Origin: an uncultured Candidatus Saccharibacteria bacterium
GTDB lineage: Bacteria > Patescibacteriota > Doudnabacteria > UBA920
Direction of reading: 5' to 3'
Length of the DNA: 64,000 nt
NCBI GenBank assembly: GCA_964504715.1
Contig: CAZDEP010000004.1
Span: forward strand, 8,542 to 72,541
Made by a program: the position numbers and the translations under genes
The notes under the pieces: generated by a model
What the model saw: only the letters and a program-made list of their open reading frames with translations
What the model was told of the DNA's origin: nothing
The model's database searches: none
Shown here: in pieces, positions 48,238-55,511 of the stretch
Position numbering within the stretch: position 1 is the stretch's first letter
Layout: the number at the start of each line of letters is the position of its first letter

Positions 48238-48314
48238 GATCACAAATACACTGATACCACAAATAACACCAATTCGGTATTTGTGAAATTCGTGTAATTT
48301 GTGCATTAGTGATC
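48238..48314 (+). repeat. ~77-nt GATC-bounded element, copy 1 (immediately 5' of the ABC ATPase ATG)
   Basis: ~85% identical to the reverse complement of 55436-55511; conserved CACAAATA...TATTTGTG inverted repeat. Confidence 0.7.
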
Positions 48315-48315
48315 T

Positions 48316-49032
48316 ATGGCTCTAATCAAAATTCAAAATTTAACCAAAGACTATATCAACGAAGACGTGGTGACTCCTGTCCTTCACGGCATCTCATTTA
48401 CCATTGAAGAGGGAGAATTTGTGGCCATAATGGGCCCTTCCGGCAGCGGCAAGTCCACGCTGATGCATGTTTTAAGTTTCCTTGACAGGCCAACCGGCGG
48501 GGAGTTTTGGTTTGAGGAGCGAGACACAAAAGAATTTAAAGACACTTTTTTGGCCGAATTGCGCAATGAGCGTATCGGTTTTGTTTTCCAGTCCTTTAAT
48601 TTGCTTGCGCGCACTACAGTTTTAGACAATGTCAAATTGCCTTTAATTTACAGCAAGAAGAAAAACCACGATGAGTTGGCTAAAAAGGCTTTGGAATCTG
48701 TTGGTCTTTCGCATCGGCTGAATTATTTTACCAACCAGATTTCCGGTGGTGAAAAGCAGCGCGCGGCTATTGCCCGGGCGCTCGTTAACGACCCGGCCGT
48801 AATTTTTGCGGATGAGCCCACCGGCAACCTTGATTCCAAAAGCGGCAATACCGTCATGGGGATACTTCAGAAATTAAATGACCAGGGGCGCACTATTATT
48901 TTGGTTACCCATGAAATGGACACTGCCAATCACGCCAAGCGCATAATTAGGCTAAAGGATGGCAGTATTATTTCTGACGAACAGGTAAGAAACAGGACAA
49001 TAGCCACGGCGGATAAGGAATTGGTAAAGTAA
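48316..49032 (+). CDS. ABC transporter ATP-binding protein (MacB/LolD-like)
   Basis: Walker [10 protein letters not shown], signature [15 protein letters not shown], Walker [12 protein letters not shown]. Confidence 0.85.
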
Positions 49033-49123
49033 TTGACAACATTGACATGATTGACAAGAATGACAGGATTCTTAGTTAATTCTTTTCAATCATTTAAATC
49101 ATTTAAATCTTGTCAATCAATCT

Positions 49124-53152: not shown

Positions 53153-53186
53153 AAAAAACCGAGTAAATTTACTCGGTTTTCTTTTT
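53153..53186. terminator. bidirectional terminator between convergent ndh-like and topA genes
   Basis: aaaaa-accgagt-aaattt-actcggt-tttcttttt. Confidence 0.6.
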
Positions 53187-55433
53187 GTACGTCTTTTTCG
53201 GCTTGGGCGGGTTAGCTTTCCAGTCTTCAAAGGCTTTTTGCAGCAGTTCTTCATTTTCCGGTTTTGTATTCATAATAAAGTTGCAGTCCGGAAAACGGTT
53301 GCAGGCATAAAAGGTTTTGCCCCGGCCGCGGGATTTGCGCTCCACAATGTCGCCGGGATTATCTTTGCGGTCGGACTCGAGGCACGCCGGGCATTTAAAG
53401 CCGGTTTTGTTCCAAATTTTGGAAATGCCTTTGCATTCCGGATATTTTTTACAGCCCAGGAAAAAACCGAAGCGACCGCGCTTAACTTCCATTTCTCCGG
53501 CGCAGAGCGGGCATTTTTCACCCTTTGTCTTTTCCGCCAGCTCGTTGATTTTCGCCTGTTCTTCCGGCATGGGCTGGGTAATTTTGCTTTCCGGGTCGGG
53601 GCAGGCAAGGAATTTGCCGTTGCGGCCGAACTTTATAAGCATCATTTTGCCACAGTGGGGGCAAGGGGTTTCCGATATTTCCACCTGTTTTTCCACGCTT
53701 TCCATTTTTTCGTCCAGGTGTTTTTTAAACGGGTCGTAAAATTCGCGCGCAACTTCCTGCCACTTTATTTTGCCTTCCGCAATGTCATCCAGCTCTTCTT
53801 CAATGTGGGAAGTGAAGTTAATATCCACTATTTCCGGGAAGTGTTCGACCAGTAAATCGTTAACCAACGTACCTTCTTCGGTCGGATGGTAGCGCTTTTC
53901 AATTTTCTCCACATAACCCCGGTCTTGAATGGTGGTCAAAGTGGGCGCGTAAGTGGATGGCCTGCCGACTCCGTGGGCTTCCAGGGCTTTAATCAGCGTG
54001 GCGTCGCTGTAGCGCGCCGGAGGCTCGGTAAAGTGCTGCAAGGGGAGCAGTTCGTGCAATTTGAGTTTTTCATCCGCTGCCAGTTCCGGCAAGCTGCCTT
54101 CAATTTCGTCCTCGGCTTTTTCGTCCGTGCCTTCGGTATAAGCGCGAATGAAGCCGTCGAACTTTACTACCTGGCCGTTGGCTCTAAACAGGGCTAAGGG
54201 CTCAGGGCTAAGGGCTAAGATATCAACCGCGGTCTGTTCCAAAACTGCCGGGGCCATTTGGCAAGCAATGGTGCGCTTCCAAATTAGGTCATAAAGTTTA
54301 AATTGGTTCCTGTCTAAAAATGCTTTAACGTCTTCCGGTTTCTTTGAAACTTCAGTCGGGCGGATGGCTTCGTGGGCTTCCTGCGCGCCTTTTGATTTAT
54401 TGGCAAAATTTCTGGGTTTTTCCAAAACGTATTCTTTGCCAAAATCTTTGTGAATAACCTCACGAATGGCAGAAAGCGCGGACTCGGCCAGGTTCAAGCT
54501 GTCGGTACGCATGTAAGTAATAAGACCGGTATGGCCTTCCGCCCCCAGCTCCACGCCCTCGTAAAGCCTTTGCGCCAACATCATAGTTTGTTTGGCGGAA
54601 AAACCCAATTTGCGCGCGGCTTCCTGTTGGAGGGTGGAAGTTGTAAAAGGGGCAGCGGGATTCCGGTTGACTTCTTTGGTTTGGATGTCTTTTATTTGGT
54701 ATTCGGCTCCGGTTAAATCGCTAACGATTTTTTTGGCATCGGCTTCAGCCGTAATATCCATTTTGCCCACTTTTTTGCCGTTGATTTCGTGGAGTTTGGC
54801 GCGGAATTTTTTTTCGTCGTTCAATTTTGAAAGATCAGCTTCTACGCTCCAGTATTCTTCCTGCTTAAAAGCCTGGATTTCTTTTTCCCGTTCCACTACC
54901 AAACGCACCGCGACAGATTGCACTCGTCCGGCCGAAAGCCCAAAGCGGACTTTGCGCCATAAAAACGGGGAAAGTTCGTAGCCGACCAGCCTGTCCAAAA
55001 TCCTCCTCGCCTGCTGGGCATCTACCAGGTTAATGTCTATGGATCGCGGGTTTTTTAACGCGTGTTCAATGGCACTTTTGGTAATTTCATGGAAGACTAT
55101 GCGCTTTACCGGCTGTTTTGCGTCGTTGGTTTTAAGCCCCAAAGCTTCCACCAAATGCCATGAAATAGATTCGCCTTCGCGGTCCTCATCAGTCGCCAAA
55201 ATAATTTCCGGGGCATTTTTGGCTAGTTTCTTAAGCTCCGCAACCACGGGTTTGGCTTTAACGGGTATTAAATAGTGGGGTTCAAAATTCGCCTTGGTGT
55301 CCACGCCCATTTTGCTTTTGGGCAAATCACGCACGTGGCCCATGCTGGCAGTCACATTAAAAGCACCGCCGGTAAAGCGGGTAATGGTTTTGGCTTTGGT
55401 TGGAGATTCTACTATTATTAAGGGTTTTGACAT
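53169..55433 (-). CDS. topA: DNA topoisomerase I
   Basis: TOPRIM N-terminus IIVESPTKAKTI; C-terminal C4 zinc ribbons. Confidence 0.9.
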   Translation of the reverse strand: MSKPLIIVESPTKAKTITRFTGGAFNVTASMGHVRDLPKSKMGVDTKANFEPHYLIPVKAKPVVAELKKLAKNAPEIILATDEDREGESISWHLVEALGLKTNDAKQPVKRIVFHEITKSAIEHALKNPRSIDINLVDAQQARRILDRLVGYELSPFLWRKVRFGLSAGRVQSVAVRLVVEREKEIQAFKQEEYWSVEADLSKLNDEKKFRAKLHEINGKKVGKMDITAEADAKKIVSDLTGAEYQIKDIQTKEVNRNPAAPFTTSTLQQEAARKLGFSAKQTMMLAQRLYEGVELGAEGHTGLITYMRTDSLNLAESALSAIREVIHKDFGKEYVLEKPRNFANKSKGAQEAHEAIRPTEVSKKPEDVKAFLDRNQFKLYDLIWKRTIACQMAPAVLEQTAVDILALSPEPLALFRANGQVVKFDGFIRAYTEGTDEKAEDEIEGSLPELAADEKLKLHELLPLQHFTEPPARYSDATLIKALEAHGVGRPSTYAPTLTTIQDRGYVEKIEKRYHPTEEGTLVNDLLVEHFPEIVDINFTSHIEEELDDIAEGKIKWQEVAREFYDPFKKHLDEKMESVEKQVEISETPCPHCGKMMLIKFGRNGKFLACPDPESKITQPMPEEQAKINELAEKTKGEKCPLCAGEMEVKRGRFGFFLGCKKYPECKGISKIWNKTGFKCPACLESDRKDNPGDIVERKSRGRGKTFYACNRFPDCNFIMNTKPENEELLQKAFEDWKANPPKPKKTYKKKTE

Positions 55434-55435
55434 AA

Positions 55436-55511
55436 GATCGCTAATGCATAAATTACACGAATTTCACAAATATCTATTAGTGGTATTTGTGGTATTGGTG
55501 TATTTGTGATC
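55436..55511 (-). repeat. ~77-nt GATC-bounded element, copy 2 (immediately 5' of topA, same orientation relative to the gene as copy 1)
   Basis: Reverse complement aligns with 48238-48314. Confidence 0.7.

Follow-up and report, generated by a model that had tools for sequence, protein, structure and literature searches.

What kind of sequence fills the last 77 nucleotides before two essential-looking start codons, if it is neither a promoter nor a ribosome-binding site? The question is raised by a 64-kb stretch of contig CAZDEP010000004.1 (the window, by which we mean the whole of that stretch), in which two copies of one short palindromic sequence stand directly in front of a gene for an ABC-transporter ATPase and of topA, the gene for DNA topoisomerase I. 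By its TopA and HlyD homologues the host can be named as a Candidatus Doudnabacteria-like member of the Patescibacteria, a group whose gene expression signals are almost unknown. The original prediction took the pair for a shared promoter or operator, for a small mobile element, or for the substrates of an inversion. Here we call this 77-base hairpin repeat pair F1, with copies A and B, and argue that the copies are best read as solo members, fixed long ago, of a hairpin repeat resembling the repetitive extragenic palindromes (REPs) and MITEs (miniature inverted-repeat transposable elements); the family would formerly have been mobile, and the two copies would now act in cis as transcribed hairpins. 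We put the probability of this reading at about one half.

Two copies of one palindromic element

Copy A (48238..48314, + strand) is a 77-nt imperfect palindrome bounded at both ends by GATC. Its first base directly abuts the TAA stop codon (48235..48237) of a HlyD-like adaptor gene (46714-48237, + strand), and its last base is followed by a T at 48315 and then by the ATG, at 48316, of the ABC-transporter ATPase gene (48316..49032, + strand; Pfam ABC_tran, E 1e-33). Because it starts on the base after the stop, copy A fills this 78-nt spacer between two co-directional genes of an operon completely. Copy B (55436..55511, - strand) is 76 nt long and lies in the 5' untranslated region of topA (53169..55433, - strand; Pfam Toprim, Topoisom_bac and Zn_ribbon_Top1), where the two bases TT (55435-55434) separate it from the ATG at 55433-55431. 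Both copies thus end 1 or 2 nt before a start codon, at the positions and in the orientations originally predicted, and both start codons look authentic: the two proteins have family-typical N-termini, MSKPLIIVESPTKAKTI being that of a Toprim/Topoisom_bac protein.

The duplication is real. Global alignment of A with B gives 69 of 79 identical positions (87%, first estimated at ~85%) with a single 1-nt indel, and the longest exact run that they share is the 23-mer TATTTGTGAAATTCGTGTAATTT. When up to three mismatches are allowed, this 23-mer occurs in the window only at A and B, and any match of that kind was found in 0 of 100 dinucleotide-preserving shuffles, which disposes of the concern that the similarity might prove to be below chance. 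The element is also palindromic. The internal inverted repeat that had been noticed at the outset, CACAAATA and TATTTGTG with a gap of 12 or 11 nt, is present in both copies, and the imperfect palindromy spans the entire element, not its centre alone: the ends GATCACAAATACAC and GTGCATTAGTGATC (reverse complement) match at 12 of 14 positions and form terminal inverted repeats. The GATC at the bounds is itself palindromic and could be either a target-site duplication or part of the terminal repeat. Each arm is built from about four units of 8-9 nt of the type CACNAAT, which in the left arm read CACAAATA, CACTGATAC, CACAAATAA and CACCAATT and in the right arm, as the inverted series, TATTTGTG, AAATTCGTG, TAATTTGTG and CATTAGTG.

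Folded as RNA, copy A reaches a predicted -20.3 kcal/mol on the sense strand (z -3.2) and -27.9 kcal/mol on the antisense strand (z -4.8); the values for copy B are -14.8 (z about -3.3) and -27.3 kcal/mol (z -6.0). The hairpin is no known RNA family in Rfam 15, where gathering and permissive thresholds gave a sole match, to MIR444 at E 7.5. A terminator scan called no intrinsic terminator at the F1 coordinates; the stems are AT-rich, and the ATG comes directly after them.

The copies lie in transcribed spacers

A consensus scan finds a sigma-70-type promoter for topA, TTGACA-17-TAAACT (10 of 12 matches), at 55525..55553 on the - strand. It stands upstream of copy B, which places copy B in the transcribed leader, and copy A is intercistronic. 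The same scan finds no sense-strand sigma-70 promoter inside either copy. With these three observations the promoter half of the first interpretation falls away: F1 is not a promoter, and it lies in transcribed spacers.

Conservation in related Doudnabacteria

Syntenic contigs were fetched through homologues of TopA and HlyD (fetched loci carry L-numbers). One relative species is represented by L117 and L118, which cover the efflux operon, and by L037 and L038, which cover topA. It carries F1 at both slots, with 77 of 78 positions identical for copy A (L117) and 71 of 79 for copy B (L037), so that the pair is not a peculiarity of a single genome, as the original prediction had allowed it might be. 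The HlyD stop codon abuts the first base of copy A in L117 just as it does here.

How much conservation is this? The HlyD proteins of the two species are 82% identical and the TopA proteins 90%; four-fold degenerate sites are only 38-60% identical and hence saturated, and other intergenic spacers range from 44 to 64%. Since the identity of F1 lies far above that of the spacers and the four-fold sites, its sequence must be constrained, and the comparison implies that F1 already stood at both sites in the common ancestor with this synonymously saturated relative. In a sliding comparison over copy A, identity peaks at 97-100% exactly there; about 15 nt to either side, where coding DNA begins, it has dropped to 72-87%, and with so sharp a peak this is no recombination tract that took in the flanks. 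Three of the four copies share an invariant right arm, and A and B are 87% identical to each other in both genomes.

The topA leader can be followed further. In all seven aligned syntenic loci (the window and six relatives) the TTGACA and GTTAAACT of the topA promoter are invariant, and in every one of them the interval of about 60-95 nt between promoter and ATG holds a hairpin with periodic arms. These hairpins belong to unrelated families: F1 in the window and L037, a AACTTATAA-unit hairpin in L039 and L121, a AATCCGCG-unit hairpin in L040, an ACGCTGA-unit hairpin in L123 and a short hairpin in L122. The other hairpins of the efflux and topA region, including a second two-copy family described below (F2), are likewise not kept in the relative species, where different hairpins fill the slots. 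A hairpin in these places is thus a lasting feature and its sequence usually is not; F1 is the exception. Every syntenic relative, whether it carries F1 or not, has the genes of the interval in the same order and orientation.

A hairpin family in other phyla

The right arm of F1 leads beyond Doudnabacteria. Its 20-mer TTTGTGAAATTCGTGTAATT, present in all four F1 copies, has exact matches at 75 metagenome loci that range from 25 to 69% GC. In 43 of 71 non-redundant cases the match is extended by CGTGG, which lies outside the query. Many of the matches are full hairpins, GCCACGAATTACACGAATTTCACAAAT followed by a loop of about 10-60 nt and ATTTGTGAAATTCGTGTAATTCGTGGC, with three 9-nt units in each arm, and the same architecture occurs in species-representative genomes of Acidobacteriota (Pyrinomonadaceae and Chloracidobacterium) and Bacteroidota. 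We use W as the name of this wider family, in which 9-nt CACNAAT-N(1-2) units are arrayed in inverted orientation on the two sides of a variable loop. Its canonical arm, ATTTGTGAAATTCGTGTAATTYGTG, is present in F1; the ends of the two read GATCAC...GTGATC in F1 and GCCACG...CGTGGC in W. From 21 W hairpins we made a covariance model, which matches each of the four F1 copies with 36-43 bits (E 3e-8 to 2e-6), among them copy A with 36.4 bits (E 2e-6) and copy B with 41.3 bits (E 1e-7), and gives no score above 23 bits elsewhere in 178 kb of Doudnabacteria DNA. F1 thus carries the canonical arm of a widespread, dispersed family of palindromic hairpins found in several bacterial phyla. This is the sense in which the proposal of a small mobile element stands, as family membership; the further copies that it would lead one to expect do not occur in the roughly 20 kb of host DNA (about 44-64 kb) that the window holds. 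The remainder is prophage-like, so that the confinement of hairpins to this one locus is uninformative.

What sort of element is W? In 621 kb of fetched loci the model picks out about 51 distinct copies; a contig may hold several and, in some cases, two or three within 8 kb. The two arms of a copy co-vary: 38 deviant positions agree between the arms, against 17 ± 4.5 when arms are shuffled between copies, a value that none of 2000 shuffles reached; a column-wise covariation test gave weaker support. The copies sit in intercistronic and 3' spacers, and their contexts, from rough gene calls based on open reading frames (ORFs), are 26 co-directional, 17 convergent and 4 divergent. They occur at junctions within ordinary operons, as in the order aconitase, W, Iso_dh-family dehydrogenase, W, PrpD. 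Some canonical arms stand alone, with no inverted partner. In Acidobacteriota the W core lies in the middle of a palindromic unit some 135 nt long with terminal inverted repeats of the CTAGTGCTNNGTAAC type that start with CTAG; these ends recall the GATC of F1, CTAG being likewise palindromic and open to the same two interpretations, duplication or terminal repeat.

Several simpler identities for W were tried and dropped. A regulon does not fit, as the genes downstream of W are unrelated (PrpD, a dehydrogenase, SusD, PGM, GATase, a cellulase, an amidase and a B12-binding protein). Nor does a transposase acting in cis: apart from the nuclease family treated below, the proteins that recur near W are housekeeping ones (CysRS, ABC transporter, SDR), with no Y1 transposase. 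Compared by eye, DnaA boxes, parS half-sites, CRP and Rex sites, the H-NS motif, Bacteroidetes promoter motifs and attC cores all failed to fit, and the repeats bound by MraZ have a period of 10 bp where that of W is 9. Rfam gave only generic matches to microRNA precursors (long hairpins) below threshold at W loci, BLAST of the consensus hairpin against PLSDB plasmids and GenBank phages gave no match, and in IMG/VR only three contigs carry a W arm. Literature searches by sequence string and by topic returned nothing relevant to F1 or W, and the family is apparently undescribed so far.

A nuclease gene beside the repeats

One protein family, and only one, recurs directly beside W: a protein of about 125-145 aa of the PD-(D/E)XK_3 or GxxExxY type (PF13366, TIGR04256). 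All five independent GxxExxY loci have at least one W nearby, and in four of them W stands on both sides. In L057 (6046-6624) the gene lies between those for the small and large subunits of a NiFe hydrogenase with a W on each side, and in L107 (522-1092) it is bracketed by W sequences. In L127 (1417-1943) it lies in a BREX-like operon in the order pglX, W, GxxExxY, W, pglZ, with canonical W copies that score 65.5 and 65.1 bits, and in L137 (1418-1948) it follows a YafQ-type toxin pair, with W copies of 33 and 64.6 bits. The fifth locus, L055/L114, has W on one side only, about 560 nt away and with another ORF between W and the nuclease gene. L127 and L137 were fetched by protein homology only and are thus independent of the W sequence. 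PF13366 has been described as a family of unknown function that has undergone multiple horizontal transfers (PMC3424549), and our literature search on GxxExxY found only that.

Because its genes have W hairpins directly beside them in other phyla, GxxExxY is the candidate for an enzyme that services the repeat. On this view the repeat would have been mobile when the family first spread, and a PD-(D/E)XK nuclease of this type would probably have serviced it in trans.

A proposed action in cis as transcribed hairpins

How might the two copies act now? The geometry of the hairpin points to the most likely mode. F1 would act in cis as a transcribed hairpin and, as it takes up the initiation region from -2 to -78, could set the expression of the downstream cistron. 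At the junction between the HlyD-like and ABC genes, the 5' arm begins right after the UAA, and a terminating ribosome would open the stem at its foot and so uncover the start codon of the ABC gene; the outcome for the ATPase would be translational coupling enforced by structure. In the topA leader, which has no upstream ORF, the hairpin may set a basal accessibility or the stability of the transcript. In either mRNA it could also serve as a 5' or 3' element for stability or processing.

Several observations weigh against the view that F1 is a fixed, formerly mobile repeat with this function. The first concern the family link. The W set was gathered with F1's own 20-mer and patterns, so that the match of the model to F1 is partly circular; the large excess of exact matches, the common extension and the common architecture are independent of this circularity. 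The left arm of F1 and its outer unit differ from canonical W. In the ~20 kb of host DNA there are only two F1 copies, as there are in the relative, and no copy was found in the collections of species-representative genomes and metagenomes. The enzyme is missing as well: a tblastn search and a hidden Markov model made from 120 GxxExxY proteins gave nothing significant in the window and 115 kb of relatives, and no Y1_Tnp transposase gene occurs in the window or adjoining any W copy.

Other points concern the proposed action. In all four F1 copies the sense RNA folds 4-14 kcal/mol less stably than the antisense RNA, which is odd for a function of the sense RNA. The antisense strand gains because A·C mismatches on the sense strand turn into G·U pairs; the asymmetry is confined to F1, amounts to about five substitution events in one direction and one in the other, which is not significant, and has no counterpart in W or in the other hairpins examined. 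Near-total conservation, the loop of copy A included, exceeds what a purely structural hairpin needs and would fit a protein-binding site, so a sequence-specific partner may exist. Finally, Shine-Dalgarno (SD) sequences are so rare across the window that their lack after the F1 hairpins is no evidence of a special mode of initiation.

The SD core is present in only about 14 of the 56 genes of the window, so that about three-quarters lack it, and many of the gene starts are preceded by AT-rich sequence ending in AACTTT or AATTT; translation initiation here seems to be mostly SD-independent. That count also weakens the idea that the hairpin replaces the SD sequence. Three further candidates for a role in translation were rejected. 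Copy A has at its 3' end a GUGAUC that might pair with the GAUCAC of a generic 16S tail (-8.3 kcal/mol), but copy B reads GCGAUC and none of the other hairpins has the motif. A leader ORF might run across copy B, but in L037 it is broken (judged by eye). A possible antisense peptide, MHKLHEFHKY..., runs through all copies, but it is a trivial outcome of the unit sequence and would not explain conservation at the nucleotide level.

Alternative explanations

The first alternative to be weighed holds that F1 is purely selfish DNA without a host function, whose similarity is kept by nuclease-driven homing or by gene conversion from other genomic copies. We think this unlikely. In its favour, W is dispersed, multi-copy and cross-phylum, and it stands directly beside a nuclease gene; units of W, GxxExxY and W lie inside intact hydrogenase and BREX operons, as insertions would. 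In Doudnabacteria, neighbouring slots turn over among unrelated hairpin families in a manner that resembles the repeated colonisation of permissive sites, and two slots of one genome often hold the same family (F1, F2 and the family of L040). The difficulty is the age of F1: both orthologous copies were kept at the same sites (99% and 90% identical) over a saturated divergence during which other hairpins of the same operons were replaced. Moreover, A and B have not been homogenised with each other, as they stay at 87% identity in both genomes, and the available DNA of the lineage yields neither a nuclease nor a donor copy.

A second possibility, which we rate as quite unlikely, is an operator in the strict sense: a double-stranded array of tandem 9-bp units containing GTG, direct and inverted, bound by a repressor that would tie the efflux pump to topA. 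Proteins of the ribbon-helix-helix or AbrB fold, MetJ, omega and MraZ among them, bind short tandem repeats, and a candidate repressor is at hand in an AbrB/MazE-fold protein encoded at 46360..46668 on the + strand (Pfam MazE_antitoxin; NCBIfam AbrB-family domain). Its gene heads the efflux operon in both F1-bearing species. An operator would account for the extreme nucleotide conservation, including the loop of copy A, for a right arm invariant in three of four copies, and for the canonical W arms that occur singly. Against it, the same arm stands beside unrelated genes in many phyla with no common neighbour except GxxExxY, the divergent spacers, which are rich in promoters, seldom hold W (4 of 47 contexts), a loop that ranges from about 10 to 60 nt suits a hairpin better than a fixed dimer geometry, and the arms of one copy co-vary. 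The AbrB-like gene has a conserved upstream palindrome of its own, AGTATGAAATTTCATACT, which is unlike F1, and L119 keeps the AbrB-like gene, yet the 27 nt visible past its HlyD stop are not F1. Of the original operator proposal, a dedicated co-regulator of efflux and topology is therefore argued against by the wide distribution of the arm, and a sequence-specific operator is retained in view of the conservation.

Could F1 instead work as DNA? An AT-rich palindrome might extrude a cruciform under negative supercoiling and so act as a sensor or buffer, or it might be a site for topoisomerase or gyrase. Such an element would make sense before topA and inside an operon of membrane proteins, where other hairpins also cluster. 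Gyrase binds to REP and BIME elements, and the insertion of proteins into the membrane during transcription leads to hypernegative supercoiling. Between the topA promoter and the ATG, each of the syntenic Doudnabacteria relatives has a long periodic palindrome, of whatever sequence, and the better-folding strand of F1 is the antisense one, so that the fold is no better suited to the mRNA. We nevertheless regard this as improbable, as W occurs elsewhere in operons for soluble enzymes (aconitase, Iso_dh and PrpD) and the formation of a cruciform needs no conservation at the level of sequence.

A promoter inside F1, giving nearly leaderless ABC and topA transcripts, is very improbable. Read from the sequence, the right arm does supply a TTGTGA at -35..-30 and a CATTAG or ATTAGT at about -12..-6 from the ATG, which is the geometry of a leaderless promoter, and the distance to the ATG is fixed at 1-2 nt. 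These hexamers are poor beside the TTGACA ... TATAAT or TGnTATAAT of this organism, however, and the scan result, the intercistronic position of copy A and the strong topA promoter upstream, which is conserved in relatives without F1, all speak against it. The inversion of the intervening segment that had been suggested is hardly credible: the copies are indeed inverted and 7.1 kb apart, but gene order and orientation are the same in all syntenic relatives, an identical contig was assembled from an independent run with a single orientation seen, there is no invertase or recombinase gene in 44-58 kb, the copies are only 87% identical with at most 23 nt of perfect match, and inversion would part both genes from their upstream signals.

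Other features of the window and its relatives

The host genes of the + strand encode the AbrB/MazE-fold protein, the HlyD-like adaptor, the ABC ATPase, two MacB-type permeases and a Pyr_redox protein; dprA, PGA_cap and topA converge on them from the - strand. The AbrB/MazE-fold gene is present in L117, L118 and L119 as well. Just upstream of it lies the perfect 18-bp palindrome AGTATGAAATTTCATACT (46338-46355; about 9605-9622 in L117), which is kept in the relative when the remaining spacer is not; it is probably the operator of this regulator.

F1 is not the only hairpin here. The F2 family comprises two inverted copies of about 80 nt, unrelated to F1 and built from 8-nt units of the ATAACAAT type: copy C (50387..50471, + strand) fills the spacer between the two MacB genes and copy D (56920..57000, - strand), 79% identical to it, that between dprA and PGA_cap. 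F2 is not found in the same slots of the relative species. Two hairpins are single-copy. The first, hp2 (49032..49119, + strand), fills the spacer between the ABC gene and the first MacB gene with arms of ATTGACA units, which present -35-like hexamers on both strands; the second, hp4 (51729..51803, + strand), is AT-rich and follows the second MacB gene, with a TGTTATAAT promoter for the Pyr_redox gene after it.

More hairpins with periodic arms stand at operon junctions and in the topA leader of L122 (3227-3302), L040 (9116-9258 and 10532-10621) and L123 (9910-10000), with the unit families AAGATTGAC, TACTAAA/TACGAAA and ACGCTGA, and one-armed tandem arrays of CAAATTN lie upstream of PGA_cap in L040 and L122. 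Across these loci the hairpin arms are always built from tandem units of 7-11 nt. Just downstream of topA in L039 (9253-9870) and L121 (3257-3820) there is a Y1_Tnp gene (IS200/RAYT-like), flanked on both sides by perfect GC-rich palindromes, e.g. CAATGGGCATCATTGCG..CGCAATGATGCCCATTG, that are unrelated to the AT-rich hairpins. Short tandem repeats of GGGCTAAG occur within topA, on the antisense strand (54187-54219), and within a gene for a Der/EngA-type GTPase (59802-59848).

The prophage-like part, two-thirds of the window, covers 1-43.7 kb, with genes for a portal protein (7553-9724), a prohead protease (9853-10743) and a tyrosine integrase (42567-43736); in L117 the same pilin-like and efflux genes are preceded instead by host genes, among them one for a chaperone. 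At 7463-7552, 9735-9852 and 19043-19142 this part carries three modules in which a TGnTATAAT promoter is followed after about 40 nt by a GC-rich hairpin with an ACGGG loop and a T-run. One stands immediately before the portal gene, one before the protease gene and one before a third gene. They resemble either promoter-proximal terminators, in which case control by antitermination would be suggested, or small RNAs. Adjoining the integrase gene, 41249-42566 is a stretch of 1.3 kb with no ORF of at least 70 aa; it holds an 84-nt imperfect palindrome (42280-42363), and Rfam gave nothing there.

Implications

A hairpin frozen for longer than synonymous sites take to saturate is a candidate cis-regulatory element in the Patescibacteria. 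For annotation, operon junctions in this clade often hold long AT-rich hairpins with periodic arms, which should not be taken for promoters, terminators or CRISPR-like repeats.

A broader picture can be drawn tentatively, and we would not yet back it over its competitors. W and GxxExxY would together form a hitherto undescribed repeat-plus-enzyme system across Acidobacteriota, Bacteroidota, Chloroflexota and Patescibacteria, in which cassettes of W, gene and W and also solo hairpins colonise the spacers between stop and start codons without breaking operons; the two Doudnabacteria copies would have been co-opted as leader hairpins of almost unchanging sequence that control the translation of an efflux ATPase and of topoisomerase I. 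If so, a widespread orphan protein family would gain a role, and there would be a second intragenomic replicator of the REP-RAYT type, with an enzyme of a different class.

Comparison with known systems

Four known kinds of element invite comparison. The attC sites of integrons are imperfect palindromes of 57-141 nt at the 3' ends of genes that act as folded single strands, with small cassette-like genes between them. Read from the sequences, however, the ends of F1 and W lack the R''/R' cores (RYYYAAC ... GTTRRRY), no integron integrase was found, and the neighbours are housekeeping operon genes on both strands.

A second kind is the REP hairpins near stop codons of E. coli. Liang, Rudd and Deutscher reportedly described in 2015 that such hairpins, as in malE-malF, modulate translation and mRNA stability. 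There too a stable hairpin lies within a few nucleotides of an upstream stop codon (0 nt for copy A) between the cistrons of an operon, but F1 reaches to 1 nt before the next start, and its second copy is in a 5' untranslated region.

With the bacterial MITEs (Correia/NEMIS, ERIC, RUP and Nezha) the family shares its size, 77 nt for F1 and about 135 nt for the units of Acidobacteriota, as well as terminal inverted repeats, the potential to form a hairpin over the whole length, an intergenic and co-transcribed position and several copies per genome. It differs in that no autonomous insertion sequence with matching ends was found and no transposase recurs beside W, slots without F1 hold other hairpins, so that no clean empty site was seen in relatives, and internal periodic units are not usual in MITEs. 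Both F1 copies, moreover, are old and fixed, not polymorphic.

The last kind is the REP/REPIN-RAYT system. Like REPs, F1 and W are short, imperfect, extragenic palindromes that form hairpins, are transcribed and sit in 3' and intercistronic spacers of operons; W as a family is dispersed and multi-copy and is kept as single sites turn over, and the gene presumed to service the repeat is flanked by it, as W flanks GxxExxY. In contrast to REPs, F1 and W are without a terminal GTAG or CGTC, their arms consist of 9-nt units in tandem that are not in themselves small palindromes, the element is AT-rich, and the associated gene encodes a PD-(D/E)XK_3 nuclease and not a Y1 transposase, no gene for which lies beside any W. 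REP families are lineage-specific, whereas the W arm has the same sequence across phyla. As a pair of repeat and enzyme, the system proposed here would have its analogue in REP-RAYT, or in a homing endonuclease and the target that it cuts. F1 is thus most like a REP/REPIN or a MITE, lacking the tag and the RAYT that define the former, and the features that set its family apart, namely arms of 9-nt units, the same arm across phyla and the association with a PD-(D/E)XK_3 gene, appear, as far as the searches reach, to be undescribed.

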